Positions 23,363-64,000 of a stretch of DNA of 64,000 nt are shown piece by piece (positions within the stretch are counted from its first letter, which is position 1; the number at the start of each line of letters is the position of its first letter). The notes beneath the pieces were generated by a model. That model saw nothing but the letters and a program-made list of their open reading frames with translations. It was not told where the DNA came from and searched no databases. A program made the translations under genes and the position numbers. The stretch comes from Saccostrea cucullata (taxonomy: Eukaryota). The DNA lies in assembly GCF_032062105.1 (NCBI RefSeq), contig NW_026928727.1, forward strand, positions 124,001 to 188,000, read 5' to 3'.

Positions 23363-24402
23363 ATGGAAACTAGTAGCATGATATGTGTTCTTTTTGGTTT
23401 CCTTAATGCGATTTGTGTTTTGGGAAACCCAGGATTGGAAACCCACTCGGCAGATGTTGAATGGAAAAAGTTATATTCCGATGAGAACATTTTTCACATT
23501 CAGCAAGAACAAATTGACTTTCTTATGAGAAAAGTGTCTGAACTCTCAGCTGATTTTCAACAACAGAAGACGGAAATAATTCAACTGAAAAACGAAAATA
23601 AAAATCTGATTGGTGCTTTGTCGGAAATTGAGAAAATATTTCAAAATAGTCGACGCAAGGACGGCCATTCAAAGTTAAAATATGAAAACGGATTTAAGAA
23701 GAGTTCATTGCAACAAGTGGAAGAAGACGAAGAGTCGACAAAAGCTACAGAAAGGAAAGGTATCTCCAAAATCAGAAAAGGTATTGTTAGTATTGAAATA
23801 TTACTCAAACATAGGCGTCGGAACTGAGGGCCCCCACCACATGTGCAAACACTTTTTTTTCAAAGATAGACATAATTAAGGCACTGAAAAAAATTGCATT
23901 TGCCCCTCCCTCTCCTTCCCTATTGATATGTTACATTATTTTTTTCTCTACAGAAAGGCTATTGCTACCACCTCATACCACCAAAGCCTCTCCTGCAAGT
24001 AAAGACGTGATAGCCTTTTATGCGTATATGACGGGTGACAGCATTGAACCTGGTGCCTCGCGTACTCTCATCTTTGATAAAATAATCACCAATGCTGGAA
24101 ACGGATATCGCAATACCACTGGAGCTTTCATCGCGCCCCGAACTGGATTTTATGTTTTTTCATGGTCCATGCGTTTATTCAACGGTTCTTACCACCGAGC
24201 GGAACTGGTGCACAACCACAAAGTTATGGGCGTGGCCTATCTCTACGCCCCCACCGGAGACCACACGGTTAGTCATACGGTAGTCATTCACGTTAACCAA
24301 GGGGATGACGTTTTCATCAGGACACAATCCGGGGCAAATTCTGGGAACATAGAAAGCGGGCCTGGTGGACGTACATCTTTCTCCGGGTGGAAACTAAGTT
24401 AG
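23363..24402 (+). CDS. Secreted C1qDC copy 2 (tandem paralog); exons 23363-23780, 23954-24402
   Basis: Same exon structure and high similarity to copy 1. The upstream region from atgggagccaggagtatcgtttt is also duplicated (about 19824 and 23122). Confidence 0.92.
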
Positions 24403-41339: not shown

Positions 41340-44300
41340 TCACAGTGGAGTAGAAGAGGCACTCTCATTTTCAAAAGCAGCATTATCTTGGAATTTTCCG
41401 AATGTACTAAGGGTCGGGTCTTTTGTAGGTGGATCCTCTACAATAGGACCAGCACTATATACACTCTGTTTGGTGTAGGGTGTAAAACCTACATTGTCAT
41501 AGTCTTTTGGATCTTCAATACTACTAGATCCTGAGGATTTTCCATTACTACTCTTTGATGACCTACAAGTACAGAAACGTTTTTTGACAATCTGAACAAT
41601 TAAAAGCAAGTTCCTGAAAAAAAGACCTGACATTGATCATTTAATTCAAAATTTTAGCAATCTTTTCTACAGACAGAAAATTTCTAAAATTGTACAGCAT
41701 TACTGTTTTTTGGAAGTCAAAAACACAATAAATTTTTCACCCTAAATTTAGGAAACAAGCTGCAAATTTCAATGTAAGCAATATGAATAATTAGAGATAA
41801 CATAAATGTATGAAACACTGAGGAATCACTATTAACAAATGTTCAATGTTCTTGGATAATTGGGTTATCCTCAAACAAGAATGTACATCTCTATGAACGT
41901 CAAGTTTATTGAATCTTCTGTATGTATAAAAGATAACTGTATACAAGGAAATTTTCGCCTCCATTTTTATTTTTGCCCCTTTCGCCACAAGTAGGGGAAT
42001 TCAAAGAACACAGTATAAATTCTTATACAGAACTTGGACTGGGCGAATTCAAAATGAGGCAAATTTGTGAGCAAGTGTAAAAGGGCAAAAATAACACGGG
42101 GCAAAAATAACCCTGTACGCTGACCACAAACAATCAAATCTTTATCTCCACAAACATTGACCCCAAAAATTAAAAATGATTCCACAGTATATTTTATTTT
42201 ATTTTAAATAGTTTGCATGCTTTTCCATAATATATAAACAAAACCAGAGTCCAAAATTTCTATGTTATGTGCATGACTACACAGAGTTATCATTTCACCA
42301 TAATAAGTGTGACTAAAGTATTACTTTCTATATGTTAGTGATGGTCTTTAATTTTCGACTCCCTCTACATCGGGGTATAGACTGGTTGGGTCGCTTCCTT
42401 TAGCTTTAGGTTCAGTTTTAGTGGCTACAGCTCCGTAAACAAAGGAACTCTTTGGATCAACGACCACTTCCTTAATATTGTCATTGTAAGTTTCATTGAC
42501 AAAGGCCGAAGAATTTTTCTCTTCTATGGAGGACGCTGAATTTGAACTGAGCCTGGAACCTTTGTCATCAGACATGAGAGATTTGTGTTTTGTTCCCCTG
42601 CAAGGTCAGTATAAAACATAACACACAACTACCCAAATTGTAAAGAGAACACTTGGAAAGGAAAAATAGGGCTTTTAAACTTCTTTTGTATAATCTCTGA
42701 AATCTGATATTTAAAAATATGTGCATTTTTTATTTTTATCGCAATTTGAACAATACTGTTTCAAAATAAAAAATTTCATCAAATACAACTACTGAGAATA
42801 AGGAAAAAGAACTAATAGGTGCAGAGAATGGAACACACTCGTGTTAAGCGCTACATCTTTCTATTGAACTTAATTTGACGTGTATAAAACAAAACTTAGA
42901 TGCAGTAGCTAAGGGAAAATTAAAAGTGTAGAGGAAGCTATTAACAATATTGGGTAGTTCTCTCATCCCTGAACTTCCTTAAGATTTACAGCAGATCCTT
43001 TAAAGTCCAAAAAGCCATAATTTATCATCATCTCTGAATTTTGTTAAGACTCCCAGCACATTGAAGCATGAAGTCTAGATGAGTGTACAGTAAAGAAAGT
43101 CCATCATTCCTTTGATATCCTTTGTTTTTATCAATTCATTAAGAAGCACAGAGATTCTCAAAAGTCCAGAAAAGTGATTACAAAAATCTACACTGAATAT
43201 CGTTCAGATTAACAGCATACTAAAGCACAGATACTTGGTGTCTAGCAAGCATACAATTTAAGAAAAACCTATCTAAAGATCTACAAGGATAAATTAAAAC
43301 ATGAAGCCTTTCATTTCCTTTATCAGGTTGCATGTTCTACTGTGGGTAGAATTTATAAATTCCTCTGTCCAGTTCAATCTCTCTATCTGGAATCATGTTA
43401 ATCTTTATCCTCATCAAGAAATCTGTCTTGTAACCCACACACTTCATTTCATTCTCATCTTTTAGTCCTTTCTTCCATTGAAAACATTGTAAAATACTAG
43501 ATGATGTACAAATCATTCTTCGTGGATAGGGAATATCATTATATTTTGAATTTTCTTCAAATTGTGGGGCTGAGGTAGGCGTGGTCAAGAAAACTCATGT
43601 TTCAGTTCAAAAAGAAAGAAATGTGCATGTAGCATTTGTTATTCTGTGAAGTGAAGTCAACAAGCAGTGCTTTGGAAACTTGGTAGAAATATGCAGTGTA
43701 ATAAGTAAACGCACATTATACTCAGGAAAAAAGCATTCTGGGATTTAAGTGGCATAAAAAATGGTCAGATGTTAGTTGTGTAATTACTAACTACATGTAT
43801 AACAGTTACTAGTCTTTACATGCAAACTTGAAATCTACTATTGTTATCAAATTAATCACAGAGAGTTAAGTAAATATAGGATTTTTTTTATGATTTTTAA
43901 ACCTGTTGAAAAACAATTTTCAATATTGACGGTAAAGTCATTGATTCACTTCTCCCTAACATTCCATTTCACTTAAAACTAGAATTTTTTACTTCTTTTA
44001 CTTAAGCAAAAAAAATATTCTATAAAATTATAAGAGAAAAAAAGAGACTTGCTTGTACCATTTACTAAATTTAAGAACTCTAATGGCCATATCCTATAGA
44101 CTCTCTGTGATTAAAAGACACCACTAAGTAAGAGTGCGCTACAGTAAGCTACTGATCAGTACTTACCCTGATGTGCGGCAAGCCTTACAGCCCATGACCA
44201 CAGTGGTGAGGAAGAAGAGGGCGGCGAAGGCCCCCAGAATGATGGCTAGGGTCCTATCCTGCTCTACCACTGGGGCCGGGGTGGAGCACTGCCTGTCCTG

Positions 44301-47300
44301 ACCCTGACCCCCAGAACCATTAGGGTTACTAGGCGTGGTGGTCTTTGTAGTGGTGGTAGGGGTGGTGGTGGTTGTAGGGTTAGAATCTGATCCAGGACAT
44401 CCTGGCACTACAAATAGTAGAATAGAGATCAGTGATTAATAAGTATAGGAGCTAGTCTGAAGCCTGTTCAACAAAGCAACAAGAAGTTCAAGAGCACTCT
44501 CCAAAATTCTTTATACCTCCAATAGAAATGTTCGAGAGCGCTCGCTGTGTTGAACAGGCCTCTGGTGTGCATAATAATGCATGGTGTATTGTTGGTTGAA
44601 TTCAGATGGATTTATTTTAGGTGATATAATTTATTTTGTGAGAACCTCCTAGGATGTGGGAGGGTGAACAGGTATGCAATTTAGAAAGGAATGCATTTTT
44701 TATGTGTTTTATCAATAGTGCCCATATCAGTGTCTTTATTTCGAAATGAAAGTTTGTTTAATATTATAATACTTGTATATTGACTTTATTTCTTTCACTT
44801 ATACCTACCAATTTTCTTTGTCCAATCTGTAGTTACTGTGACAGGATCACAGAATTCACAAATAGTGCTGGGATTGACTTCATTGGCAACGTAGCATTTA
44901 CCACCTATAACGCATCCTGTTGTCTACACAAGAAGAAATGAAAAGATCAAAACTGTGAAATATTCTCAGCTGAAGGACTATTAGATTGAGTTCTCTAATT
45001 ATTCCTGATACAATGTGAAATAAAACAAGTATATGTTATTACAGAAATAATAAATTCAGTCAATTAATATTGATAACATTATAACTTACTGTAGTGTTAC
45101 ACTGCCCACTGCTTTCACAGACATAACACATTGGGTGGTAGGCGATAAAGAGTTTGGGTTGGCTGATGGCCTGCCCATTGTTACTGACAGACAGACTGAT
45201 AGCTGAGACAGCGGTACCAGCGGGGGCTGACAGGGAGTCGGGAACGGTACACACTAATAGGGTGGAGGTCATAAACTGGGCTGGGGAGTGGATGACATTG
45301 CCAGTTGCCGAGAAACCAGTAGTGGTCATCTAGAAAAGAATGATACATGTAAATATAAGCATCATCAGAGTATCAACCATTCCACTTTCTTAGCATTATG
45401 AGAGTATCATCTATTCCACTTTATAAGCATTATCCGAGAATCAACCATTCCACTTAAAGGGTACTTAAATTCAAATTTATTCCCCTTTTCAAAAATTGCT
45501 GGAAGCTCCCCCCTAAAACAACTGTGCCATGTAACACTGCAACAAAATATTGACCTTTTGGAAGTATTGAAATTTGTCATTTGATTTTAAAACAGTTTAT
45601 ACGAAAACACTACAAATAAATGTGAAAATTCAATATAAAATGTAATTTTTTTCTCATTTAAAAAACAAACAAATGGAGGTTTAACATGATGGTGTTGATA
45701 TTTAACCCTTATTATCACAGGCCTTTAGATCGCTTAGAAAAAAATTTGACGTGTAAAAAAAAAAAAAAATAAAGGTATGGAACTCTTTTCATAGGGTACC
45801 TACTTTCGCCAATAAAATTCTTTTAAATCAATGCTTTACAATTTTACTTTCTATCCATATCTATTCATATATAAACAATCTTCATGACTACTAAAGTTCA
45901 TTCCATATACTTCTCGAGATATTCTGAAATAAATCCCAAAATTGACCTTATTTTTTTTTACTCGACATCAGCTTGGGCCTTTGAAGGGCTACACTAATTG
46001 TTAAGCGGGAACGACAGGACAAATTTTTCCCGGATTTTACTTTATATACTCGATGCATATTTGCTCATTTGCATTCGAGCTTTACAAGATTTTCTCTAAT
46101 TTAATCATATGAACTAACTAAGTCACTAACAACATTTTAGCGGTCCAATTGTTTTTAAAAGTATATTATACATTGCGGGAAAAATTCGTTCAACCGTAGC
46201 TTCTTTTACATTCATAATAAACATGGCGGTGCAGTTGTTGATATAGACACTTTCAAATTAATTTCTCGTGCAAGGAATTACTATGGAGTTAACGTAACAA
46301 CCTGGAGTAAGAAATCAACTTTAAAATGTTGAAAGATATTGCAAATACTATGCAACTCTTCCCTGCACTTCAAACACCATCTGTTTACATGTGAATGACC
46401 AGGGCCCAAGCTAATGTCGAGTAAAAAAAAGTAGGTCATTTTTAGAATTGATATCAGAATATCTCGAGAAGTATTTGGAATTTCGGAATGAGCTTCGGTA
46501 GAAATGAAGATCGATTATCTATGAATAGATTTAAATAGAAAGTAAAATTTTAGAGCATTTGATTAAAAAATATTTTATTAGCGAAATTGGATACCAAGTG
46601 TAAGAGTGCCATACCTTTATCTTTTTTTACACACACAAATTTTTTAAGCAATCAAAAGGCCTGTGCTTATTATTAAAAGAAATTATACAGTCAAGTCTCC
46701 GTATGAGGGTCAGTAAGTCCTGCTAAGGGTCTACCTGAGTAGCCTGGTAGTGACATTTAGGAGACAGATCCTCAGAGAATGGTCCACCAGAGACTAGCAC
46801 TGTCCTACAGCCTCCATTCTGTAGAGAACACAGACCGTCAGCTTCCAGGCTAGTGATAGAGGGCGCTGCCGACTCCTGGATAGAGCAGTCAGCTCCAATG
46901 TAGTCACGGTAACACTTACACTGACCTGGAATAAAGCAAGTCCCAGTATATAGTGAAAAGATAAAAACTACTCATTTGCAAACACTTATCACAAGTATAG
47001 AATTTAAATTGGTAAAATACTCAGTTTAAGTAAAGATTTGCAAACACTACGCATAGAGAAATCAAATTGGTACAATACTATAAGTAAAGATTAATCAGTC
47101 TTTTAAACAGAAAAATATCTTAATACAGAATCGAATTTTAACATTTTTTTTTTTTTAAGTGTTTTATTACACAAAAACCATATACATCTTGACTGTTGAC
47201 ACAATCATGCTACTTTCACTTTACCTCCTTCACACTGCCCGTTGCCACTACAGTCATTAGGACACACCAGGGTCATGATCTCTGCTGACAGAGTCTGGAA

Positions 47301-50300
47301 GCTTGTGTCTGTACTCATGGTGGGGGCCATCTTAGTGAGCTGGGCTTCACACTGGACCTTTACAATGCTGTCTATAGATACACCACTGGTGCCATCGTTT
47401 GTCTGTTAAGTAATGAAGATAATCTGTTTTTAGAAAAATAAAATTCTCAAGATACATGTAATTGTGATATTTAGTCACAGTCTCATCAAAATATCAGATA
47501 TTTCAATGGTTAAATGCTGCAGTTCACAAAGCAATTAGGCATTTATGTACATCAGTCAACAGAGAAGAAAAGCTTTATCATATATCTCAACAAATGAGTC
47601 TCCAAAATATATAAATTCTAACTGGCTTTTAGATAAAAAAAAATTATTGAATTAATAATAGAAATACCTTAAAGAAATTTAATCATTATACAGGTGACAG
47701 ACTGACCAGTATGGTTTGGAATCACTTACCAGTATGGTTTGGACACAGATGTCTTGGATGGCCTCTGTGAAGCTGGAGCCCACCAGTGTCTGACACTTGT
47801 TCATTAGTGTACTGCTTCCCATCATACTGTCACAGTATTGACCCCCCGTTGTCAGATTCCAGTTACCTGAGGCAGACCTTGTCAATTCTGTGTCCTATTA
47901 AAAATGCAGGCAAACATGTTAAACTCTATTTCATTTCTCTCAAGCATATATCTTATTAACCTCTGAGAAAAATATTCTGACTTCATAATGGGATGAAAAA
48001 TCTTGCGAGAAAAAAAAATCTCAAATAGTAACCACAATTTAAAATCATGGCCACTTCAACTCATCTCCCTCTCATTGCTTTTAAATAATAATTTAAAGAT
48101 GAAAGTACCATTCTAAAATATTTGATTAGCTTAATTAACATTTTAATATTACCAACATTTAAATATTACCCAATTTAACATTTTACACATACCTGAGGAT
48201 CATAGTTGACATCAATACCAGACAGTCCTGCCCATGGACTCTCCACAGCCCTCTTGTTTCTCCTGTTACCCACAGAGTTAGACAGCTGTACCATCTCCGC
48301 AGTCACATCCTTGCCTTTAAGAAAATTATTCCTTCATAAGTCAGTATAGTTGATATTGTTAGCTCAGATGCATTTATCTTTTCTTTACAAACAGCCTATC
48401 GTAGTGATTATTTTTTTTTTTAGCTTAACCCTGCCAAATATTGAATAGATTTTCTTGTTAGAAGGAGGCAATCAAGAACCTTTCATAAAGAGCAAAATTA
48501 TACCTGATGTTGTGAGAGGACAGGTCTTTGATATCAGCATTGGTTCACACCGGTTCTGAATTAGAGTGTTATCTCCGGTACAGGTACAGTAAACTGGAGG
48601 TTGATAGGTAGGATCTGCAGGTGCTCCAATATACAGACTGTCACCAGCCTTATTCCTATTGAAAGAACAAACACAATCAACATCAGTATCACAAGATAAT
48701 ACAGATGTATTTATGTTGTAAAAAAGAAGAGAAAATGTTATCAAATATTTATCTATGGCCTTTTATCACCAACCTCCATCCCTTGATGAAGTGAGCCTTG
48801 TTGGTGGTCAGACTACCAGTTACAGGCATGGCCATGTCATTGTTCTTGTTGGCATCATACACACCACACAATCCTAAAGGAAGAAAAAATATTTGTTGAC
48901 ATTTAAACATTCATTCATTTTATAAACTTCAAACGTAAATTTATACAAGGAAGGTATTTAAGTCTCACAAAAAGTCTCACAAGTGCACGAGTAGGCAAAC
49001 CAAAATTAAGAGACAAACCTTCAGATCTGAGCCAGTCCAAAGATGAAGGCACCACAAAGACACCCAGTTTATTGCTGGACTCTCTCTGAATGACAACCAG
49101 GGCAGCTGTCGGTAACTCAACCTGAAAATGAAATGGAATCTCTCAAGCATAAGCAAAACTTGTTTCTTTTTCTTCTTTTAATCAGTCAAAATCATATAAA
49201 AAATGAAAAACATGGAATGTGTTTAAATATACAATGTACATCTAAGCTGTATAAAACACTCAGATCCCAGTCTTACCATGATGAGATTTCCGTCGTTGTC
49301 CTGGTAGATCTTAGTTCCTTGAGCCAGGTCTCCATTCTTGTACAACTTGACTGGAGATTCTAATGGAGAGCCCTGAGCCTTACTGCACACATCGACCACC
49401 AGAACATCATCCTGCGACTTCACCATAGCTGCACAAGTACAGGTCTTAGATCGAGACGTGCAGGCCTGATTCAGAATGTGGACCTAAAACAAAAGGAAAA
49501 AGTGATTATATCGGATGCTTTGACAATTAGGATTTATCAATAATTGAATTTATAAAGAAATTTGATGAGAAGAAGTACATCTTTTTTTTTTTTTACCTCA
49601 TATGGCATGGTAGCATGCTTGTACAATGTGAATTCTCCTCTGTATCTGTTCTTGACTGTCCTGAGAATAGACACACATAAAATGCATAATATGTGAAAAT
49701 CATATGGCAAAACTTTTAATTGAGCACTTCAAATACAGAGTAAATCTGTTCAGATGAGCTAATACATGTAGTTGCTTACTTTCCATCAAAACTAACAATG
49801 TAGGAGTCAGAAGATGAACAGAAAGCTGGCTGATCAGTGTCAGTTGCAACAACCTACAAAAAACAAAGAGAAAACATTTTAGCACATACTCACTAATCTT
49901 CACCTATTTTGATGTTGAAATGAAGTAAACTAGCTGTCAAAATTGCTTCGGCCCTAGGAGACATCTTGAACAGATTGTTCCTACATACATGTATTTCCTT
50001 TCGTATCTTTGAATGATATACCTTCATGTCTGGCATCTGTCTGGTGAGAACCAGCTGATTGTCTGTGTATTTCTCCACCACCATACTGAGGTTGACATCC
50101 TGGACTCTGTCATACAACATGTCACTGCTGGCCACCAGAGGGATCTGTGTGCCTTTCTCCCAGTTGTCAGAAGTGAAAGTAAAAGTACATGGATCTGCAA
50201 CACCCTCTCCTTTATACACAACTACTTGTGGTATTCTTTCTTGATTTTCGGTGCACCTATAATAATCAAAATTAAATGTCAAAAGTAGTAAAGGATTTAA

Positions 50301-53300
50301 GGGTATTCAGTGACTTAAAACTCAGTTACTGGCAGTTCACTTATGAAAAAATTAAATTTCTTTGTAGACAGTGGAGTAGAGACTATATTTATTCAGACCA
50401 CTTACATTGGTGTGGAGACAGGGTTGTTGCTAAGTTGGAGTTTGACCTTGACCTGGCAAGTTTTACCGGCCTCACACTTGTCACTGGGGGACTCAGAAAG
50501 CTTCAGACCCAGGGTCTCCTCTGTACCTCCCTCTATCAGCCGCAGGGTGGACTTGGTATTGATACTTGTCTGCAAATATTGAAGTAAACAATCCATGTTA
50601 TAAATGTCTAGTACAAAATGAATATCATATCCTAAGAATAGCCATACAATTTATATTTGTAACAATATGTTTAATAAATGTGTATAATTTTATGTCAAGT
50701 AGCTATCATTCATTTAATTAAGAATACTGAATATGCAGAATACAAGTTTTTAAATGTAAGAATGTGCATACTACAAGATTTGGCAGTGGTATACAGGTAG
50801 ATGCAATCTTGTCATAAGCAGCTTGTAGTTCTAATTCTGTACGACGGATTGTTTCTCCATCACAAGACTTAAGGTTGGCTGTCACACACTGCAGGGTACT
50901 CTCATAAGCACTGAAATTGGGAAAAACCACATCATGTATTTTATAATCCCTGTTAATCACTCAAAATTAATCATCTACAACAAGATGACAAAAATATGAC
51001 TGAATTCAACTTAAAATGCACTTAAATTTTTTTTAAATAAAAGTGTTATTTAGTACATATAACATTTAAACATATAATTAATTTCTACAAGCAATATCAT
51101 TTTGAAATTTATAAATAACTGTAAAACTGTTTTAACAAATCATTTAATTCAGCAATAACAAAAATGTACACAACTGACCTGCAGCTTGGGTTGGCCTGGA
51201 AGCTACTGATACATTTCTTGGCGGCATCCAGTTGACAGTCTGTCTGTGACCTACACATGGTGTCCTTGGCTGCCTTCATCTCAGACAAAGCACCGCGGAA
51301 GTGATAGCTCACCTCATCATCCTTACAGCTCTGGATCAGTGCTGTGACATTCTGTATGGTGCCAGGCAGCATACTTGTAAAAGAGAGCAAAACATAATTA
51401 ACTCAATAAATTTTGAGTCACAGGACCTTCAAAATGTAAATAACTGCTAGCTTGTAAAAAATGTGTATTTTTATTACATGATATGTCAAAGATAACATTA
51501 TTACGGAATCATTCATATAAATTAGTATACCAAGTGAAGTCATAACTTACTCGCAGAAAGCCTTCATGTCCATGATTGATCCAACCTGGTGCATGGCAAG
51601 TGTGGCTGCTGGGAGAATCTGACAGGTGTCTGGCTCTACAAAAAAATCCATTTTTTTTTTAAAATACTTGCTCATATTGCTTCATTCAAAATTTTCCCAA
51701 ATACAAAGAAATAAATCAAGCAAACTGAAAATTCATATCTCTGCTTGTAAATCTCACCCTCCATTAAATCACAGGACCTCTCCTTAGCACACATGTCATT
51801 GATGACCACATAAAGCTCTGATCCCACTCCTGCAATGAACCCTGCCACATCACTACGGAGACCCGATGTCGAGCTGCGGAGGTTATTTATGATACAACTA
51901 AAAGCCTGGGTGGCCCCCATGCATTGCATGGTTTTGACCTTCAGATACATGTCTTGGTGACTCTTCAGTCCTCGTGTCATGACATCCAAGACTTGAAGGT
52001 CATACACCATCATCCTCCCTTCACTGCTCCTGTCTTCCTTCATCATCTTCGCCACAGACTTCTCTATCTCCTTTGACATCATGTTGATGACAGAGGATGA
52101 GATGTTGTCCATTGACATCTTCCACTGACTCATCCTCATCATCGGGTCCTTACCATAAGTCATGTCCCACATCATCTGAAATAGATAGAAACATTAAAAC
52201 TATGGGAACAAACATCCTGCAATGTATAAATTAAATCACAACAAAGACTGAACTGTACATAAAAAATAGGACTTTTCAGGCCTTAAAAAAATCTGCAAAC
52301 AAAGAAATAGTAAATTTTGAAATAACATCAGATCTGCAAATTGTAAGAAGTACATAAATTCAATATATTCTATTCACATACAGTGCTTTTTTTTTTATTG
52401 TTAATAACACTTAAATGCATTAACATGGTAACAATTCTCTTTCCTATATATTTTCTATGTAAAACTTTGATACCCTATTGTGGCCCCGCCCTTCCCCCGG
52501 GGGTCATGATTTGGAATCTACACTATACCAGGATGCTTCCACATAAGTTTAGCTTTTCTGGCCCAGTGGTTTGAGAAGAAGATTTTCAAAGATTTCTCCT
52601 ATATATTTCTATGAAAAACTCTGATTCCCTATAATGGCCCCGCCCTTCCCCCGGGGGAATGATTCCTAGAAATAGAATTTACATTCAGAATGCTTCCACA
52701 TAAGCTTCACTTTTTCTGGCCCAGGGTTCTTGAGAATAAGATTTTCAAAGATTTTTCCTATATATTTCTATATAAAACTTTGATTCCCCATTGTGGCCCT
52801 GCCCTTCCCCCGGGGGTCATGATTTGAACAATTTAGAATCTACATTATACCAGGATGCTTCCACATAAGTTTAGCTTTACTGGCCCATGGTTCTGGAGAA
52901 GAAGATTTTCAAAGATTTTTCCTATATATTTCTATGTAAAACTTTGATTCCCCATTGTCTTCCCCCACACATGGAACAATTTAGAATCTACACTATACCA
53001 GGATGCTTCCACACAGTTTCAGCTTTTCTGCCCCAGTGGTTCTTGAGAAGAAGATTTTTTATATATATATATATATCCCCTTATATGCATTTTAACAATT
53101 TAAATTCCCCTTCACCCAAGGATGCTTTGTACCAAGTTTGGTCAAAATTGGCCCAGTGGTTCTTGAGAAGAATCAAAATGTGAAAAGTTTTCGGACGGAC
53201 GGACAGCTGGACAGACGGACGACGGACAAAATGTGATCAGAAAAGCTCACTTGAGCCTTTGGCTCAGGTGAGCTAAAAACATTAAAACTATGGGTACAAA

Positions 53301-56300
53301 CATCCTGCAATGTACAAATTAAATCTCAACAAGGACTGAACTGTACATAAAAACCAGATTTTTCAAGCCTTAAAAAAATCTACAAACAAAGCAATCGTTA
53401 CAGGGAATTTTGAAATAAATCTAACCTGCTAATTATGAAAAACTGAAAAATACACAGATTCAATCTATTCTATCCATAATGCTTATATAATTTTTTTTGG
53501 GGGGGAGGGGGGGGAATAACACATACTACTTCTATCATAGTAATAATTCTCTTTCACTGTATATGATTACCTGATTGGTAACTTGATTGCGTATCTTGGA
53601 TAAGTTGGTCATTATCATTTCTCCCTGAAGTACCCCGAGAGAAGAGTAATAGAACTTATTCATACAGAGGTCCAATGAGTTAGAGCAGTCCATTTTCCTG
53701 GCTTTGACTGCCTTGTCCTTGACTGCATTCAGGGCCATATCCAGGGCTCCCTTACTGAACATAGAGCAGCGACTTGTCTTGTCCTTTACACAGGCATGTG
53801 CCATCTCAACAGCCCTATTGAATTCAAGAAATATTTACAGTAAAACACGGATATAGCCATCACGCTTATAAAGAATTTACGCTTATAGCGCAGCACTTGT
53901 CATTCCCCGGCCGAATTTCTATAAATGTCTTACCAAAATTAACGTTTATTGCGATGTTGAATATAGCGAATTAACGGATATAACGAAGTAATTTTTAATC
54001 CCCTTTGGCTAAAACAACACTGAAATTCCAATGTTTATAGCGAATTCCTTGTTTTCACTCTTTAGGGTTTCACACATTTCCGCATGGACGCGCATTAAGG
54101 TAACAGCTAAACACGGGACCGGCTTGTGTTGTAAAAACAGAATATTTAACTCATTATTTTAAAAAATGTCAGAGGAAAACAAATGCAAGATTTGTTTTGT
54201 TTATTTTTAATTGGAAACGCGAGTTGAAAATTGACTCCGATTATTTAAAAATGGCATTCACTTAAGGCTAAGAATGCACTTATCTATAAATAGAATCTGT
54301 TATTCCCCACTAGCTTTAAATATCACCTATAGAGGCCCCAAGCGGGATAGTTTTGTTTCAAGTGAACTCTTTTCACGTAATAAAAAAGTCTGATTTAAAA
54401 TGAAATGTATTCATGTGGTGATTAAGGTTTTCTACCATTATTTTGTCAAGTACGGGTCGATAGACAGCTGATCATGTTGACTCGGAAAGTGATGATGACG
54501 TGCCTCTTGCAGAATTAATGCGAGCATGCGCATTCGATGGAAGTAGTGATGACTACGTGAATGTTGACAAAGATATCGTGTCTGTAGAAAGCATGAATGA
54601 TGACCAGATTATTGATGCCCTTATCAACAAAGAACTGTCGAGTGACGATGAAAATGAAACATCCGTTCAAGAAGATTTACCGACCGATGAAATCAATATT
54701 AAAGAAGCACATATTTACATGCAGAAAGTGCAGAATTGTGTTGAGCGTACGTCGGAAAATGTTCCTGACTCAGTGTTTAAAGCGTTCGCGGAGATTAACC
54801 ACCATTTGAAAAAACTTCAGCTAACTGGATTGAAACCATCAAAAATTGAGAAATTTTGTGCAAAACAAATAAATATTTAATGACTATAAATAATGTTTGA
54901 ATTAATAACGTGTTTTTTTTATTTTCTGCGAATTTTTTTTTGAAGTTTCACAATACATGTACCTCATTAAAATTAGTAGCGATTTTTTGCTTATAGCGAA
55001 TTTTGCTGTTAGTTTATTAAAATTCGTTATAAACAATATAACGAAGTATGCTTTTAGCGAAGTAAATCTAGAGGTCCCCAGCGCTTCGTTATATCCGTGT
55101 TTTACTGTATAAGCATAGTATCTTCAATGTCTCAATTCCAAGAAACAATACTGTAGATTCCTTGTTTTTCACGAGTACTTTTTATCGCGAATGGGCTCTT
55201 TAACGTCAACGCGCGAGAATAATAATTCGCGAACTGCTCTTTTGATCAAGAGCTTTTACATAGATTTCACAACCATTAAAATAAAAGCAAGTAATTTTAT
55301 TTCGCTATTGGTGCGTCTCGCGAAATTACGCGATAATTAATTCCACGCATATATTTAGGAATCTACAGTACTTCCATTACGAATTTGAAATAAAGCTGTT
55401 TAGCACACTATAAACTTTATTGACATATTAATTGAGCAAAGTTTAAAAACTCAAGTTCAATCATAAAACAGACTCCTACATGCACATGTGAGCATTCTCC
55501 ATGTTTCCACCTTCAGACAACAAACGATCCAGACTTTCCACGCAGTACATGGCCTGATCCGCCTCGCAGCTCATTGGCTCCTGGCAGGAGTTTCCGGGAA
55601 TCATGGGACAGACATTGTACACGGCTTTGTGTATCATACCCAGCATTGAATTGGCTATCATCATTTGTCCTGAGGAGCAGTTCCCTATGTTCTCCATGTA
55701 ACACTGCATTGAGGTTGTGTAGGTCCTAAAGAATGCATTTAATGTAATTGGTTATAATGTATACATTAAATATACAATAAAATTTACCATTTTATTATAT
55801 TTAAAAAATATAGGCAGTTATTTATTCAAAGCTTAAACTTAATTGTATCAAAATTTACACAGAAACTTTATAATTTTTTTCCTCAATTTAATCCAGCTAA
55901 ACCATGTTGTAACTGCTGCATCTCACTTACTCATGCATTGAGCTGCAATCCACGAATGGACTTTCCAATTCCCAGTACAGGTATTTCAAACAAGCATAGG
56001 CTGCTGTTGTGTTACAAGTAGCAGTCATATGGCCTTTCTTCATACATTTAGGTAACTCCATTTTGGGTTCTTCCATTTTGTCACAGGACTTGAGGAGGTC
56101 GCTGGCAATGCAATAGGCCTCTTCTGCTCCTTTTACAATCTCCATTTTGATCTCTTTGGAGCAGCCAAATGAGTTAGATCTCAAACAATTCATGGTTGCT
56201 CCAAAATGACTGGAAAATATAAAGTATTGTGCATTAAAAATATGTGTAGCATACTGTCACAAAAATTCACTTTCATCATTTTTCAAATTCTTAATGACTT

Positions 56301-59300
56301 TTCTGCATTTTTTTTTCTTGACAACTTATGAATGAAACGTTCCTATGTTCCATCCAGAACCTTCTCTTTTACCTTTTCAACAAAACAAACAACTAAAAAA
56401 TTTTGTAAGAAGAAAAAAATGACATGTAATACCTGCAGTAGGGATCATCGTCTTTGTTGTTTGTCATGTTTTTCCCTTCCGCCATCTTCTTCATCATTAA
56501 AGTGGTCTCCATGCCACAGGTCATAAGGTCATTTGGAGAACAGGTAGCAAAATGATCCTCACAGACACCTGAGAAGTCTCTGACGGTCTCCAGGAAGGTA
56601 TAGTAACCTCCCAGTTGTTCTACTTCAGCAGGACTACACTGACTCATTGAGGACTTGACAAGCATGAGACAGGACTGGAATGCTCCCTCACTAAAAAGAT
56701 TTGGATTAGATAAAAAATGAATTCCCCATCTAAACAAATCTTCTCTCATGTGAAGAAATTTAAAGATATACAGTTTAATTTTCTAAAAAACTTTCAGCAT
56801 TCAATCAGTGGGAGTTCAAAAGTTTTGACTACTGACCTACAGAATGCCTTCTTGTCTCCTCGGTTTAGATTGGCTGAGAACACAACAGGGAAAGTATAGG
56901 CAGCCAAACACTGAGCTGCCATTGTAGTGTCACATGACGTAGAGGACTGGTCACCTATTGATAACATAGCATCTATAAATTTTTTTTACAGTGAAATAAT
57001 ATTTTTCAACACTCACAATATGAATTCTAAAAACATATTGGTCAATAAGCAATTATGATTGAGTGTAAGTAAACTGATGCAGAAACCCATGATTTCTATC
57101 AAGGAAAACTGTATTGTCTTTAATTTTCTTCTAATCTTACTTGTTTTGGTTTCCATGGGTGTTTCTGCAGTATTAACTTGTTCACAGATCTGCCCTGTCA
57201 GCTCTGCAGTGATGCCGAAGGAATTTCCGTACATGGCGGTCAGGAACTTCCGGGCGTCCTCTGTCTGATTATACATCAGGCATTCATACATCATCTGTAA
57301 GCTTCTACAGATCCTCTCTACAGAACTGGTGCTGGTCTGGAGAGCTGCAGTCATGTTTCCAAGGAACATGTTTCCACACTGGTTAAGACCCTGTGCCTCG
57401 GCTGTTAGGGTTGATGGGATGAGGGAGCTGTCTAATGTGAAGGCGTTACAGGTCCCCACGTTCTGTCTGCCGAACCACAGCTGGGAGTCAAAGACCTGAA
57501 GCTGAATCAGGTTACAGCCTCGCAGATGACGTGCCGCACAGTTCTTTACTGAAAAGGCTTCTTGTTCACTGCAAATATAGCAAAAAGGCTGTGAATGAAG
57601 CTACTGGAAACAAACAATATTTCTTAAAACATATTAAATACAGTCATGTAAGTAACACACTTAAATCAGAAAAAAATCCATACAAGTCATAAAGCATGCC
57701 TTAACACTAATTAAAAGATAAAAATATACTGAGTCTACATACGTGCAAGATGACTTGGTCATCAGGGGAGTGTAACAATTTCCAGCCTCCTGTAGGGAGC
57801 ATGTGGGTGGGGGCTGACAGCTGCGATACAATGTGGCTGACACGTCCTGACTATAACAGTACGGCAGAACCTTGTATGCTGGCATCAAAACTTCTAAGTA
57901 GGAAGACACATCATACACGTCTGAGCCGGAGCACCCAGCAGTCTGGGTAGTGTAGCACTGCAACATCTGGGGGAGTTTACTGAAAAATACAAACAATCAA
58001 AATATTTATTAACACTTTCTTCTTCTACTGCAAAATTTTCCCTCATGTATTAAAGTATCTCTACCAAGATTCATGCTTTGGCAAATAACCACACTTACAA
58101 TGTATTCATGATCTCCATCAGAATATCCTTTGAATTCTTTTTTTATCAGCTTATAATTACCTGCAGGTATCTTTGGTGACTCCTTTGCTGTAGTCTCCGA
58201 GTACAGAGATGCACTCCTTGGCCTTCTTGACGTTACAGATGTAGTTAGTACTGGTGGTGCTGTAACACTGTCTGAGGGCCTGGACAAATGGACAGGTGTC
58301 CCCGATGACACTCTGTACATAATCCTGTATGTAGGACAGTCCCATCTTCTGATCTGCTGAGCAGGATACAGTGTGCTTCTCTATACAGGCTACAGCATAG
58401 TGGTATGCTCTACAATATAAAGTCAAATGTTTATAAGCTATGTATTTTTTTACAAAACTTTATTACATTAGTGTAAACCATTCATTCAAATCACTGGGGA
58501 CACACTGAATTAAAATCAAAACCAAAGGCAAAAAATCCTACCTGCAGAGTTTTTCCTGAGGAGCGGCATTGCTGCTGAGATAAGGGAAGACAGCCATGTA
58601 ACATCCGTAAGCTTCGTCCACTTTACAGAGAGGTGGAGGTGCCACTCTGTTATTGGCAGGCTGATCACAGATTGGCTTCGTCTGATTAACCATAGTACCC
58701 ATTACAGCCATGTACAACAACTGGTGAGCTGGTGAACACTTAGCTATCAGAGGGCGTAATTCTGGTATCACAGAGTTGTTCAACATACTGGAAAATAAGA
58801 TTTATTTCTCTGAACTTGCCTTCTAAATCATTGAATTTACAATTGACTAAGAGCAAAATCTGAATACATGCATCTTCATGATGAGAATTAAACTTTTATT
58901 TCACTCTGATGCCCCTACATCTGTACAAAAACACACATTTTGAATTAAACGTGGCTCATAAATCATGTGCATTTAATGTAACTCATAGCATTTTCCACAG
59001 TATTCCATTCCAGATATTTATATGTACAGTACACATGTAAAAAAAAAATATGAGGCTCTTCAGATTCATTTAATTAAAAGAATTAATAATAAAATACTTT
59101 ATCATTTTCTGAAACTTACTCGCACAAAACTGGATGCTGTGATTTAGGTACAAAAGGTCCAATCAGTTGTGCTGAGAATCCAGAGATGATTGTGGAAATC
59201 TTGTACACATCACAGGTATCATTTACTACAGAATACATGATTAGAGTGAACTTTTTATTCTAGTTATTAAACCCTCATACCTGTCCTTGGTGGACAAGAC

Positions 59301-62300
59301 CAAAGGAGGAAATATGTTGCATTGGTCAAGTAGGAAAGCATAATTTTTTTTCAACTAACATTCAATTGTTTAATACAAATTTTCTGAAACTAGATTAAAT
59401 TCCTCTCTATGGTTTCCCTTCAATAATCAATAATTTTTAATACACGTATTAAAAAGATTACAAGAAAATATCTCCTGACCATTACCTTGAAGCATATGGT
59501 CAACCACAGATCCTATGCTGGCATCAAGCATGCTGGCCACTTCCCTAGCAGTCAAGTTCATTTTGTCCTGAGTGCCATTAGCCATGTGTTTGGACAGCTC
59601 CTCAAGTCGAGTGCCATTAGCCAGGACAGGCAGTGTCATCTTAGACATTCCCTGGGTCAGGTTATACAACATCCAGCCCTTCCACATCACCTGCTCGGGA
59701 TACCCCTTACAGGCCTCTGTTGTGTAACCTGCCATCTCATTCATCATGGACATGACGCTGCTCTGGGCCACCGGTGAGAGATTCTGTCGGCTCAGACAAG
59801 ACGTCAGCTCGGCAAGAGCTTCACAGAAGACAGGGCCGAACCAGTCGGGGTACATCAGGGCTCTCTTGAAGCTGGCTATGTAGTCAAGGTTACAGACTGC
59901 GACACCCATTGTCTCATCTCCAAATAAGGCAAGTCTACAATAATGAACATTAGCATCATAATTGTAAAATTTGAGTTAATTAATTATTGTAATCAATTTA
60001 TCAAAGAAATCTCTTGTATAAAAACTGTCATAAATTCTATTCTACTTTGTGATAGACTTACTGTACAGCATTTTCCATTTCTGTTGTTACATTACGTAGT
60101 ACAGGTGACAAGCTAGCAAACACAACTTCTGCTGTCATGTTCTGGGTCTTCTGTGCGTACTTGGCCATCAACATGGAGTTGAGAATGCCTGACATTGGTT
60201 TGTTGTCTCTCTCATTGTCCATCTTCTGCATTATGTTGTACTCCAGTATCATCTTTGCAACCATTTCCTCTGTCATCTTGTACATGTTCTACAAACGAAA
60301 AGCTTGTTTTTTTTAATCTATCAAGTATTGAAAACCATTTTAAAAATTTTTAGAAATCTGTCACATCTTTCAATGGAATAGTTATACATGTAATCTCAAT
60401 GTCATTTCATTACATTTAAATCATTCAAAGTGTGACATCCATATAATGAAAGAACCTGTATTCAGATTTCTGGCAGAATACTATTTTTTTTGTAAATATT
60501 CATGTACTATGTCTCATTTTATGAAAAATGTTGAAGATGGTTCAAGCTAAGGAATAAAATGTTATGCTTTACCTGGTTATTCTGGAAAACTCTGCTGAGT
60601 GCACCACATCTCATGGTCACACTGGCCATGACATCAAATACCATTTTAAACACAGGTACACCCTGGGCTACTGCACATCCTGAGGTGTGGTTAGCAATGC
60701 AACCCAAAGTGGTCATAAGGTCTGACCTGTTTGCACTTTTGAAAAAAAAAGCAAAAATAATTGACTTTTTTACCTTGACACCAGTGAAATGGATATATAA
60801 TTCAATTGCTAATGCAGTAAAAATAGTGTCTCTTAATTTACTATATTATCGTCAATAGACTTTATAGCATTGATTATTACAAAAAGTGTGGAACTTAAAC
60901 ATCACTTACCTGCACATTTCACTTTCTGAGATAAACCTGCCAAAGCAAGCTGCTTTAGCATAAGGAATATCACAGACAGGCTCAGGCATGGGCAGAGGAC
61001 TACACATCTCATGCATCATGTTAGAGATAGGGCAGTGTCTGATGAAAAATCCCATCTTGTTTGTCATATTTCTCATTACTTGATGTTGAATAGTCTGACT
61101 GCATCCACTGACCTTGGAACTCATACAGCGTGATGCTAAAAATAGCTCCCTGAAAAAAGGAAATTACCTTTATATAACTACAATTTTTTATTTACAAATA
61201 CCAAGTCTCTAGCAAATACTACAAAAGTGTATATAAAATAATTATTTGAAATATTTCATCTGAGTTATTATTTAAAGTCTGACATTTAAGTAATAGTTAA
61301 TGAGAGAATTCTGAAAAGATATAATTCCACACAAAACATACATGCAGACTTGATCATAATCCCTTGGCCGGGCTTTCTTTGTGGCCTCCATCTTCTCCAT
61401 GTCAGACATCATGACCAGACTGTGTAGCAGCTTGTGTTCCTCCACACACTGGGAAAGCTCCTCCACTTCACACTTGGAGTCTTTGTTGTCGCCTAACATC
61501 ATTCGAGACATCATCTCACAGGTCGCGTTATCTCGAGCCATCATTCCAGGACAGTAGTCATGACCCAGAATCTGCATGATGGTTTTGAGTCCGTCGTACA
61601 CAGCTATAGAATCGTACTCGGAGCATTTGTTGTGAGCCTGGGCAGTCCTGATCATGGTCAAAGTGTTATTCAATTCACTGTAAATAGAAAACATCCACAG
61701 GACTTGATTGAGGACATCATTTAATAAATTGATACCTTAATTAATATGATAAAAGAGAAACACATTTAATCTATGTAAAAATATCTTCCTATTAATTGAA
61801 TGAAACAAAAAGCATGATTTTCTAAAAATAAAAAGAAGGGAGCCATTTTAGTACTCTGAGCTTTCAAAGTGCATTTACGTGTACAGAAATATTTTTGCTG
61901 GCTTCATAGGTGCAATCACTCACTAGCAGATAGCTGCCCTGGAAATGGCAGGTTTGTTGATGGCTGTAGCCAGTCCTATAACACTGCGAAGTCCACACTC
62001 GTACTGACTCGGGTCACCAGAACAAGCGCCCTCTAGAGCTGTACGCTTGATCATGAATCCTAGCTGACTGGCAGCCTGGTGGCTGCGATGAGCACAGCGA
62101 GAGGTGTGGTAGTCCATACACCACGAGGCCTTGTATACATCCCTGACAAAACAGATAAAATGTCATTAGAAATGTGTCCTGACTTCAGCTGTCCTTGTAC
62201 TGACATTACAATTACTCCAAGTTATTTCCAAAATATGCATGTTCAGTAATATACAGTCATGAAGAACCCAATAACAGAAAAGCAATTTTTATTCCTTGTA

Positions 62301-64000
62301 GTTTCTAAAATATATTGGAAGCTTAATGAACATAGAGAATTCCTGTATAACATGGTTTACTCTATTTTCTAAAAAAAAAGCACATAGATTTACCTCATGT
62401 TGGGTGTTCTGTTGAGGATAAGGCTTGGCACAAGGTCCATTCCACATTGTATAGCCATGTATGGCTGACACATTGGGTCTTTTTCTTACAAATAAAATGA
62501 TCATAGGTTAAAATAAAGAATTTACATAAAATACTACCCCAAAAAAATCTCTTCTAATTAAAATTGAACAAGTGAAGACAATAATAGAGGAGGTTATACA
62601 TGTAATTATATAACTTCTGTGCTGAATCTACCTTTGTGTGTAGTCATCAGTGGTTTGTTACACCAGCTTTCCATGCAAGTCATAAAGTGCATTCTGTCAT
62701 CTTTATATTCATCGACAGGATAAGAACAACCCTTGTAGATCTTTCCATCAGCAACTGTGGTTGTACAACCTTGACCTGGCTCACAGGTCATGACCCCTTG
62801 TAGGTTACATTGCTCATTATTTGTCATTCCATTGCACTGGAAGCACTTGGTAGCTGCAAAAAGATTCAGCACAATGAATTAAAAAAAATAGCTAAGACAT
62901 AGTTTTATTGTTTTTTTTTTCATTCAGATTTACTTACTTTTGATTTAATTAAAACAATATCAAAAGAAATACTAAGCAGAAACAATTTCAAGAAATCATT
63001 AAGCAATATGATTAGACAGATTCTTACGTTCACAAACTGCTCCTGCAACTGTAAATAGTGCATGCATGGTGACATTCAAAGTGGCTCGAGACTCAGCTGG
63101 GATCAGATGAGTATACATCTCCATACACCTTGCTGCCTCAGCAAGCTCAGAGCAAGAAGACCATTTCTTCATCTTCATAACCTCCATTGATTTTGACAGG
63201 TATTCAATAGGGTAGTCAGGTGAGGTCATCATTTTCGTCATATCGGGCATCATCTCGCGGACTTTGTCTGCTAGCTCATCAACCATCCACTTCTGCATCT
63301 CCTCCTCCATTTCTTCCTCTGCATCTTCATCCTCCTTCATCTTCATACCCATCCTCTCCATGGTCTTCATGATCATGCCCTTAGCCATCTTGGCATAAAA
63401 GAACTGCAGCATCTTGGTACTATCCCCCATCTGTACGATTTCTTTGACAGCGGTTCTTATCAGGTACGAGTGGTTCAGCCGCATGTTGTGTTCCACCAGT
63501 GTTTTATTTATAGCACCAATGGCCATAGACAACACACTATCCTTATCATCCATACTGATCATCATTTCTACCTGTTCAACAAAGTCCATCTCTGGATGAA
63601 CCAGCCCACTTTCCATCATGGTCAGTTTGATCAGTCCAGATACACTTGTCAGTACACCTTCCATTCCATGCATGTAATCATCTTTCTTCATACACTCTGG
63701 AGCTTTCCCAGTCAGTCTTCCCAGCCATCCAGCAAACATGGTCATGGCCTCACTTCTTGATCCATTCAGTTTATCTCCCATCTCTCTCCACATCTTCTCC
63801 TGTTGTGCGTCAGGTATGCTCATGTTCTGATCTCGGAAGAACTTCATGGTTTGAACCGCTGAGCCTACCTTGGCTAAATCTGCAGTGAGGAGAACAGAAG
63901 AGGCAGACTTCCAGAGGAAGGAAGTGACACAGCCCAGGGCGGGCATGGTTTGACAGATGTAGTCGAGGGACTGTATAGCAGGGCTTAATGTGTCATGGAA
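41340..64000 (-). CDS. Giant type-I membrane protein, 5' end outside the window: six-Cys helical repeats with Met-rich inserts, a Ly6/uPAR-like module, a VWD plus EGF-like (VWDE-like) region, a Thr-rich stalk, a TM helix and alternative tails
   Basis: More than 35 short minus-strand exons. VWD motifs (AFCSSSDSYIVSFDG, GEFTLYKH, CTCAAMV, GLCGVYDANKNND). EGF CPNDCSGNGQCEG|GQCKCYRDYIGADCS, followed by APSITSL..GLC. TM LAIILGAFAALFFLTTVVMG in exon about 44167-44408. Terminal exons 42348-42597 and 41340-41562. Confidence 0.85.
41937..42122. mobile_element. Degenerate TA-target MITE
   Basis: ctgtatacaaggaaattttcgcc ... gggcaaaaataaccctgtacgctg imperfect TIRs. Confidence 0.55.
45355..45455. repeat. 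Minisatellite of about 35 bp, 3 copies
   Basis: Variants of agcatcatcagagtatcaaccattccactt in tandem. Confidence 0.7.
45716..46665. mobile_element. Foldback element with TIRs of about 260 bp and an 8-bp TSD (P-element/Galileo-like or hAT-like)
   Basis: cacaggcc...cttgggcc (45716-45979) is inverted at about 46403-46665. Perfect TSD cttattat at 45708-45715 and 46666-46673. Confidence 0.8.
52432..53279 (-). mobile_element. Helentron-type element with satellite units of about 160 bp (Cg170-like by recognition), one end missing
   Basis: Units tttcctatatatttctatgtaaaactttgat.ccc.attgtggccccgccc, a (ggac)n microsatellite, and a terminal hairpin agctcacttgagcctttggctcaggtgagctaaaaa. Confidence 0.8.
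53838..55107 (+). mobile_element. Internally deleted pogo/Tigger-like DNA transposon
   Basis: ta|cagtaaaacacggatata ... tatatccgtgttttactg|ta. ORF 54500-54880 resembles the acidic C-terminal tail of pogo/Tigger transposases (DYVNVD...MNDDQII...KPSKIEKF). No DDE core seen. Confidence 0.75.
55151..55368. mobile_element. TA-target MITE, full length
   Basis: ta|ctgtagattcct ... aggaatctacag|ta. Confidence 0.8.

Follow-up and report, generated by a model that had tools for sequence, protein, structure and literature searches.

In bivalves, the digestive gland takes up food by endocytosis and is also the place where metals and algal toxins are concentrated; the receptors that serve this uptake are poorly defined. 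Receptors of the megalin/LRP type combine a giant, single-pass ectodomain of Cys-rich repeats with a furin-type site, a tail with FxNPxY-like and YxxΦ motifs, and expression in digestive tissue. Here, we analyze a 64,000-nucleotide (nt) stretch of the genome of Saccostrea cucullata (assembly GCF_032062105.1, contig NW_026928727.1, positions 124,001 to 188,000 of the forward strand; hereafter, the window), which carries the 3′ part of a gene for a 7,318-amino-acid (aa) protein, P0003, with a methionine (Met)-rich arm of Cys repeats. We propose, with a probability that we put at roughly 37%, that P0003 acts in endocytic capture, as a giant receptor whose plastic hydrophobic surfaces are lined with Met.

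Met occurs in bulk or in clusters in several described systems. The M domain of SRP54 is a Met-rich helical domain that binds signal sequences (PMC2288941). In CTR1, Met/His and His motifs stand beside a Met motif, the Met-only motif binds Cu(I)/Ag(I) but does not bind divalent metals, and the three transmembrane (TM) helices form a trimeric pore whose Met rings are located in TM2 (PMC6627586). The periplasmic protein MrpX is inducible and scavenges hypochlorite by sacrificial oxidation of its Met residues (PMC4436054). Met-rich regions likewise recur in NU-5 and LMP, insoluble shell and ligament proteins of Pinctada, of which NU-5 aggregates with calcium and is expressed in the mantle (PMC7591529).

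Gene structure and transcript evidence

An earlier, sequence-only reading of the window had singled out a minus-strand open reading frame (ORF), 62999-63946, with about 41 Met in 315 aa (about 13%). The count holds (41/315, 13.0%) and the peptide quoted in that reading is present; the ORF itself is not a gene but the 3′ part of one internal exon, without a start of its own. The start of the exon falls past the end of the window, the Met at 63946 does not serve as a start codon, and the exon end at 63028 makes the last nine ORF residues (RKNLSNHIA) and the stop part of the intron (Table 1). A homologue search recovered the S. cucullata protein XP_062579251.1 (875 aa, 99% identity), whose cluster contains P0003, the window's own protein. 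By exon chaining, residues 4397-7318 of P0003 map exactly to 39 minus-strand exons between 64000 and 42351; the 5′ 60% of the coding region is found past the window end.

RNA support was drawn from four of the 24 runs listed, which carry no tissue labels; runs X1-X16 contained only 0.05-0.14 of the words. A 4,292-nt contig from RNA run X1 connects 44165 with 52175, and one 6,723-nt contig from run X4, whose status as RNA is a guess, spans 51758-52175, 57139-57568, 59486-59934, 61341-61677, and 63028-63679; its gaps, of 1,143 and 532 nt, correspond to 381 and 178 codons in the gene model. Seven CT..AC joints are listed for the base region, from contigs and raw reads, and the RNA contigs and the window share about 95% identity. 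Splicing, together with the orthologues described below, led us to reject a chance ORF. The introns also contain a high-copy repeat with a period of about 160 base pairs (bp) (52440-53280), which is very deep in all four runs, and insertions resembling mobile-element copies (53850-55360 and 45430-46700), with extra read depth in parts.

Domain architecture of P0003

P0003 begins with a signal-like segment, as judged from its sequence, and continues with an arm of Cys-rich repeats (aa 58-6445) and a base that comprises a VWD region, a furin-type site, an EGF-like domain, a Thr/Pro-rich stalk, a predicted TM helix, and an 85-aa cytoplasmic tail; it is predicted to be a type I plasma-membrane protein. 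The arm is composed of six-Cys repeats of the pattern C-x7-C-x(8-36)-C-x8-C-x7-C-x22-C (33 strict matches), which alternate with a four-Cys variant, C-x22-C-x8-C-x(26-35)-C (nine strict matches), and a hidden Markov model built here from 85 repeats of seven proteins finds 47 matches in P0003. The Cys residues of the arm are predicted to form disulfides, about 200 in all, and the protein displays 93 N-glycosylation sequons. Two Ly6-like domains are also present, and a loop in the first of them bears a second RxKR/RxRR site that is kept in three oysters. As a separate observation, aa 2687-3087 and 4412-4950 represent an internal duplication of a four-Cys repeat with insert, a Ly6-like domain, and a six-Cys repeat. 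Pfam scans of the Met-rich exon and of record P0002 recovered no family, and the window's own VWD, scanned as single exons only, gave no Pfam match; the Pinctada orthologue used to place it by alignment matches PF00094 with E 9.5e-10 (39.4 bits against a cut-off of 22.9).

Table 1. Features of the P0003 gene in the window, listed from 5′ to 3′ along the minus strand after the gene as a whole
Feature	Position	Strand	Basis and remarks
3′ 39 exons of the 7,318-aa predicted type I membrane protein	42348..64000	-	exact exon chaining; spliced RNA contigs over 44165-63679
Exon with the Met-rich stretch, aa 4397-4720	63028..64000	-	324 aa, 41 Met, 6 Cys; open at window end; GT donor after 63028
C4420, Cys1 of the host repeat	63929..63931	-	sequence
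Met-rich insert A, aa 4421-4678	63155..63928	-	258 aa with 37 Met and 4 His; predicted to be a folded helical domain in four-Cys repeat
Mets-like run MIMKTMERMGMKM, aa 4605-4617	63338..63376	-	followed by acidic EEEMEEEM; retained among oysters, absent from pearl oyster and scallop
C4679-x8-C4688-x30-C4719, remainder of the host four-Cys repeat	63032..63154	-	sequence
Intron read-through within ORF 62999-63946	62999..63027	-	non-coding
Ly6/three-finger-like beta domain, C4724-C4785	62660..62845	-	PF00087 E 0.0073, 17.5 bits, under cut-off 21.2; strands in model
Met-rich exon of ordinary repeats	61341..61676	-	13 Met in 112 aa; without large insert
Met-rich linker between repeats, aa 5134-5233	59895..60605	-	12 Met in 100 aa; three exons
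Met-rich linker, aa 5296-5373	59215..59708	-	8 Met in 78 aa
Met-rich insert F, aa 6143-6257	51924..53663	-	115 aa, 20 Met; equivalent loop of another four-Cys repeat
VWD region, about aa 6587-6768; Met-poor base	48773..49850	-	alignment with Pinctada orthologue; PF00094 precomputed on P0004 and P0005
Furin-type site RNKR, aa 6837-6840	48250..48261	-	RxKR at the equivalent position of Ostrea, Pinctada, and Pecten
EGF-like domain, C6961-C6987	46885..47264	-	PF23106 weak, E 0.015; Pinctada E 0.0014; both under cut-off
Predicted single TM helix, about aa 7208-7229	44186..44252	-	sequence only; after Thr/Pro-rich stalk
Cytoplasmic tail exon	42348..42596	-	SSIEEK, FVNETY (42486-42503), YGAV, YPDV (42366-42377)
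Possible alternative last exon, in frame	41340..41562	-	SSIED, YDNVGF, DNAAF, end STPL; AG acceptor and phase read from sequence

The tail retains motifs of a sorting type over long distances. The segment that reads FVNETY in the two Saccostrea species is FVNQTY in Ostrea and YPNPAY in Pecten, and SIEE, VDP..S..(Y/H)GAVA, DPT.L, and a final YPxΦ are kept as far as the scallop despite an identity of only about 29% between the ectodomains. The cell-surface protein with an endocytic-looking tail that the sequence-only reading had envisaged is in keeping with this pattern. The possible alternative last exon lies outside the RNA coverage examined, and its STPL terminus is presumably a class I PDZ-type end.

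Relatives in bivalves

Orthologues of P0003 were recovered from S. echinata (7,292 aa, 88% identical), Ostrea edulis (LOC125660324; 7,248 aa, 68% identical in the arm), and Pecten maximus (LOC117338914; 6,864 aa, collinear), with partial records from Pinctada imbricata (3,036 aa) and Mizuhopecten (LOC110459004; 2,034 aa). The Mizuhopecten record (P0007) bears a flavin monooxygenase fragment at its N-terminus (aa 38-155), probably a gene-model fusion. A representative search gave 28 matches at E 0.001, and all six of the named records among the first ten looked up are from bivalves. Eighteen records (P0006, P0016, P0017, P0019, and P0033-P0046) were left out of our counts; these are translations of C-to-T-converted, bisulfite-like contigs with 0-2% Ala+Pro+Thr, and they are misleading for studies of composition.

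The same repeats and a Ly6-like domain are also found in Met-poor paralogues, viz., Pecten LOC117338893 (P0018; 1.9% Met) and proteins from Sinanodonta (3.8%) and Ruditapes (4.0%). Given that the Met-poor paralogues P0018, P0023, and P0025 share the repeats, these records suggest that helical Cys-repeat proteins make up a broader family in bivalves. P0018 additionally carries SUEL lectin, WAP, and FAMeT domains, and P0025 carries VWC and WAP domains.

All named relatives are annotated as ‘uncharacterized’ or ‘hypothetical’, and literature searches by identifier and topic, in which subscription journals are thinly covered, showed no description of the protein family among the results listed. 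The available portions of PMC7558416 and bioRxiv 10.64898/2026.05.15.723513 (oyster atlas) contain nothing tied to this gene. The only literature trace that we found is a table row: a digestive-gland transcript named after Pecten LOC117338914 was down 11.88-fold after domoic acid injection, and two transcripts named LOC117338873 fell along with it (PMC8150855, Table 4). LOC117338873 is close in number to both Pecten genes, LOC117338914 and LOC117338893. The protein is thus conserved, undescribed in the literature searched, and shared by oysters, pearl oysters, and scallops.

Methionine content and placement

The exon is genuinely rich in Met, a property that it shares with the arm at large. 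Against an assumed background of 2.4%, 41 Met in 315 aa has a binomial p of 3e-18, and nine other ORFs of the window contain 1.3-2.7% Met; against the 8.5% Met of its own repeat arm, p is only 0.004. The arm as a whole has about three to six times the usual level, and the base of P0003 only 2.8%. A tandem repeat was rejected as the cause, the only one in the exon being a 47-bp array of a 15-mer (63300-63346), and CpG decay was likewise rejected, the observed/expected CpG ratio being 0.33 in arm exons and 0.25 in the Met-poor base exons.

The sequence-only reading had placed the Met block between an early Cys and the C-x8-C of a repeat, and this is borne out both at 62999-63946, where the layout is C4420-[258 aa, 37 Met]-C4679-x8-C4688-x30-C4719 (insert A), and at 51759-52177, where it is C6142-[115 aa, 20 Met]-C6258-x8-C6267-x34-C6302 (insert F) with C6142 in the exon upstream. 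Both inserts are expansions of the x22 loop of four-Cys repeats, and a third, shorter one occurs at C2696-C2782; A and F were rejected as paralogues of each other (no match, probability 0.1). Two further stretches noted in that reading are Met-rich as stated but are not loop inserts, 59430-60290 consisting of linkers and 61340-61680 of a repeat region of ordinary length. The richest stretches lie outside the window, at aa 3928-4047 (17.5% Met) and 4117-4245 (22.5%), and contain no His.

In insert A, Met behaves like Leu. It makes up 43% of M+L+I+V+F (12% in the base), and across seven lineages, with the near-duplicates P0004, P0008, and P0012 left out, Met columns are shared with hydrophobic residues at 0.54, close to Leu columns (0.57) and far from Lys columns (0.16). 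AlphaFold2, run on the exon with 12 sequences, yields a compact, all-helical unit (predicted local distance difference test [pLDDT] 67.7, predicted template modeling score [pTM] 0.69), which agrees with the helical inserts of the sequence-only reading; the model of the 875-aa protein is weaker (pLDDT 56.2, pTM 0.47). Insert A is accordingly modeled as a folded helical domain, and the repeats are likewise predicted to be helical. Most of the bundle matches listed for the exon model span residues of about 14-324 with about 90 aligned, which is consistent with the end helices making the host repeat and the insert being looped out. Foldseek recovered no matches at E 0.001 for either model, and VIA-align recovered only generic bundles (best Z 9.1 for the 875-aa model and 6.2 for the exon model). 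A PDB sequence search with P0005 gave no matches at E 0.01, and one with the exon profile gave 19 rows, all at E 0.45 or worse.

Comparison of the relatives indicates that Met is conserved as content and that its positions are mostly not conserved beyond oysters. Whole-protein Met in six named orthologous records is 7.8, 7.9, 7.7, 8.7, 7.6, and 7.2%; exon-sized relatives at only 22-36% identity have 10.8-14.5%, and the aligned positions of insert A 10.1-15.9% in eight relatives. Loss of Met content in orthologues, which the sequence-only reading had named as a sign against its proposal, is therefore not what is found. On the two Saccostrea branches, polarised by Ostrea, the 520 changes include 36 gains of Met and 50 losses (p 0.16), with an implied equilibrium near 6.3%. 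Overall, these substitutions and compositions point to Met content as a maintained property that is still being renewed. Positional conservation, also raised in that reading, holds within oysters only: in insert A of S. echinata all 37 Met are kept, but so are all 18 Leu and all 16 Val, and Ostrea keeps 33 of the 37 Met at 74% identity (p 0.025). Outside oysters, 14-43% of the Met positions are kept, near the overall identity of 23-34%, against 92-98% of arm Cys in three distant named orthologues. At least six of eight sequences have Met at 8 of the 258 columns of insert A, and all eight at two; the insert has no invariant His.

A proposed capture receptor and its alternatives

On the reading that we prefer, the Met residues of insert A would make up flexible surfaces for hydrophobic binding, and the giant receptor that bears them would capture varied hydrophobic cargo (lipids, lipoproteins, or hydrophobic proteins) on absorptive epithelia such as the digestive gland. 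The captured cargo would then be carried into the cell by endocytosis, via use of the tail by clathrin and phosphotyrosine-binding (PTB) adaptors, and the receptor would be recycled. By analogy with the SRP54 M domain, Met may serve as an unbranched, plastic contact residue, a role for which calmodulin is a further precedent, and surface Met would absorb oxidants as a side effect. The lipid-binding surface that the sequence-only reading had listed as one option is close to this proposal.

Several observations weigh against a capture receptor. On a crude helical wheel, the LIVFWYAC face receives only 6 of the 20 Met counted in the insert, a share like that of charged residues. In the six-Cys repeats, counted like the wheel with the near-duplicates P0004 and P0012 left out, Met is raised in every column class relative to the paralogues, and the largest excess is at polar columns (155/2468, 6.3%, vs 13/615, 2.1%; p 1e-5), with core columns at 78/744 (10.5%) vs 14/187 (7.5%; p 0.27). 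Taken with the sharing of hydrophobic columns, this suggests that part of the Met is core-like and part likely exposed. The Met-richest linkers, at aa 3928-4047 and 4117-4245, are acidic and of low complexity (Asp/Glu 37.5% and 24%) and would make poor hydrophobic grooves. The oyster tail has NETY/NQTY rather than canonical NPxY, and adhesion receptors also use NPxY tails; the conserved furin-type site could shed the whole arm. No LDL-A, YWTD, or CUB domains were found, the first two being missing from Pfam scans of P0002, P0005, and P0007, with the N-terminal 4,380 aa of P0003 outside the scan. Expression is low in two raw-read runs (bins mostly 0.2-4x outside repeats), and the structural models draw on 10-12 sequences and nowhere exceed a pLDDT of 90.

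The alternatives are not mutually exclusive with a capture receptor or with each other. One is an oxidant sink, in which several hundred exposed Met thioethers would absorb H2O2, HOCl, and HOBr at the surface of the epithelium and so shield the approximately 200 predicted disulfides and the cell, with endocytosis renewing the coat. The Met excess at polar columns fits such a sink equally, being threefold there, and it extends to the low-complexity linkers; content kept without positions points the same way, and MrpX offers a precedent (PMC4436054). The Met of insert A nevertheless follows hydrophobic columns, an 800-kDa receptor would be a costly, low-abundance sink, and the scallop transcript fell 11.9-fold after domoic acid, a treatment that PMC8150855 links to oxidative stress, whereas MrpX is induced (PMC4436054). 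We regard this alternative as unlikely.

Somewhat less likely in our judgment is a structural or adhesive scaffold, whereby the arm, either shed at the furin-type site or tethered as a glycocalyx, would assemble via the VWD and the sticky Met-rich regions. The conserved RxKR after the VWD, the mucin-like stalk, and the 93 sequons suit such a scaffold, but the VWD start lacks GDPH, the autocleavage motif of this domain, and the tail has kept its sorting motifs. Cross-linking through Met-Lys pairs was tried and rejected, adjacency being inconsistent among three orthologues (z 2.9, 1.7, and -2.0). The acidic Met-rich linkers do resemble the Met-rich shell and ligament proteins of Pinctada in composition, but those proteins are of 45-120 kDa and, as described, without the architecture of P0003, and NU-5 comes from the mantle (PMC7591529), whereas the sole tissue datum for the P0003 group is from the digestive gland (PMC8150855).

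Quite unlikely, on the motif evidence, is a Cu(I)/Ag(I) capture scaffold that feeds endocytic metal uptake or detoxification, the role to which the sequence-only reading had inclined. Met-only motifs bind these ions (PMC6627586), the tail looks endocytic, and the oyster protein has one Mets-like run, MIMKTMERMGMKM; the run is, however, missing in Pinctada and the scallops. Met-Met spacings of 1-11 are in line with those of local shuffles (in 55 tests, |z| reaches 2.2 at most), and MxM, MxxM, and MMxM are not enriched over them. Triple-Met motifs are above shuffles in insert A (6 vs 2.0 expected; reached by 9 of 300 shuffles), mostly on account of that run, and in the Pecten arm (20 vs 9.9; 3 of 300), but not in the arms of Saccostrea (17 vs 16.9) or Ostrea (17 vs 15.6), such that only 2 of 16 motif tests were positive. 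Insert A contains 4 His in 258 residues, none invariant, Met-His adjacency is not enriched, and P0003 has no Ctr-type pore or oxidase domain. A copper storage protein (Csp) is the top structural row for the 875-aa model (Z 9.1, root-mean-square deviation 3.8, 96 aligned), but it is tied with pectin-methylesterase inhibitors and designed bundles below the bar that the alignment tool sets for helical bundles, and we gave it no weight. Copper capture thus does not appear to be the main pattern of the Met. Unenriched motifs, scarce His, positions poorly kept outside oysters, and the confinement of the one Mets-like run to oysters leave the metal proposal weak. Zn(II) is not a thioether ligand, and Met-only motifs bind no divalent metals (PMC6627586), which makes Zn an unlikely ligand.

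A more sweeping proposal is just as doubtful as copper capture by itself: that the locus represents an undescribed bivalve uptake system, with an 800-kDa endocytic receptor whose arm, unrelated to those of megalin and cubilin, would present several hundred Met on helical disulfide repeats and so catch soft-metal ions (Cu(I)/Ag(I)) or hydrophobic cargo with high avidity in the digestive gland. Its oyster-specific Mets-like patch could aid copper accumulation in oysters.

Finally, it is very unlikely that Met has no specific function and is merely tolerated for Leu, Ile, or Val in a weakly constrained helical array with the inserts as spacers, for although it swaps mostly with Ile, Leu, Val, Thr, and Lys by single-base steps, losses slightly exceed gains (50 vs 36, p 0.16), Met positions are lost at depth, and inserts A and F are unrelated, the threefold excess persists in Ostreidae, Pteriidae, and Pectinidae at identities of 25-33%, is confined to the arm, is absent from same-repeat paralogues, and is unexplained by base composition. 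Were composition all there is, P0003 would still represent a new giant protein family, though little more. Beyond this, the Met-rich orthologues and the Met-poor paralogues with the same repeats offer a natural comparison for the role of bulk extracellular Met in plastic binding, oxidant scavenging, and soft-metal capture.

Other features in the window

At lower window coordinates, on the plus strand, lie two tandem C1q-domain genes (20068-21225 and 23315-24402; PF00386 E 1.7e-21 and 9.1e-20) with a coiled-coil first exon, and ORFs with a zinc finger (PF25431) and a hAT-dimerisation-like region (12957-15431), likely a DNA transposon remnant.

Comparison with known systems

The repeats themselves have only distant candidates for kinship. 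Their six-Cys spacing is, we presume, similar to that of DUF19 and CPG4. For DUF19 (T20D4.11-like, PF01579), an Atlas feature score of 0.76 (136 of 256 shared) to a DUF19 cluster serves as a lead only: P0002, P0005, P0007, P0018, P0023, and P0025 gave no DUF19 Pfam match, and the window-type repeat gave no usable Atlas feature match. CPG4 (PF15481) is reached at E 0.04 (14.9 bits against a cut-off of 32.7). The P0003 repeats differ from both in being arrayed about 47 times with large inserts.

Among Met-rich systems, the SRP54 M domain resembles insert A in being helical with Met as the main aliphatic residue; it differs in being cytosolic, small, and RNA-binding, and no sequence or fold match to insert A is listed (SRP54 M and DUF19-like folds are both absent from the listed structure matches, which does not exclude them). 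MrpX, NU-5, and LMP share with P0003 an extracytoplasmic richness in bulk Met, but they are small soluble or matrix proteins, as opposed to a giant membrane protein with disulfide-type repeats. Extracellular Met clusters are common to P0003, Ctr1, and CueO, the oyster run reading MxMxxMxxMxMxM. Unlike Ctr1, P0003 has neither His motifs nor a three-TM pore, its single hydrophobic segment lying near the C-terminus with one Met; unlike in CueO, the host of its Met insert is a predicted helical bundle rather than a cupredoxin beta-barrel, and Pfam scans of P0002, P0005, and P0007 found no multicopper oxidase or cupredoxin match. P0003 is neither a Ctr transporter nor a multicopper oxidase. The core of copper storage proteins is lined by free Cys thiols, whereas the Cys of the secreted P0003 arm are probably disulfide-bonded.

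The base of P0003, which we take to be VWDE-like, would share with the proteins of that name the order of a VWD, an RxKR-bearing linker, an EGF-like unit (one, under the Pfam cut-off), and further small domains, with PF00094 and PF26129 detected on orthologues; P0003 adds the 6,400-aa helical Cys-repeat arm, the TM helix, and the sorting tail. The closest functional parallel is with megalin/LRP, which P0003 resembles in size, predicted single pass, Cys-rich repeats, furin-type site, a tail that has NPxY in Pecten and NETY/NQTY in oysters, and the digestive expression of its Pecten orthologue. This likeness is in the way of working only: the repeats of P0003 are predicted to be helical, with other Cys spacing and none of the LDL-A, YWTD, or CUB modules found, and it is not a member of that family. 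P0003 is a candidate receptor comparable to megalin in size, with an arm of another kind and an excess of Met that is selected.

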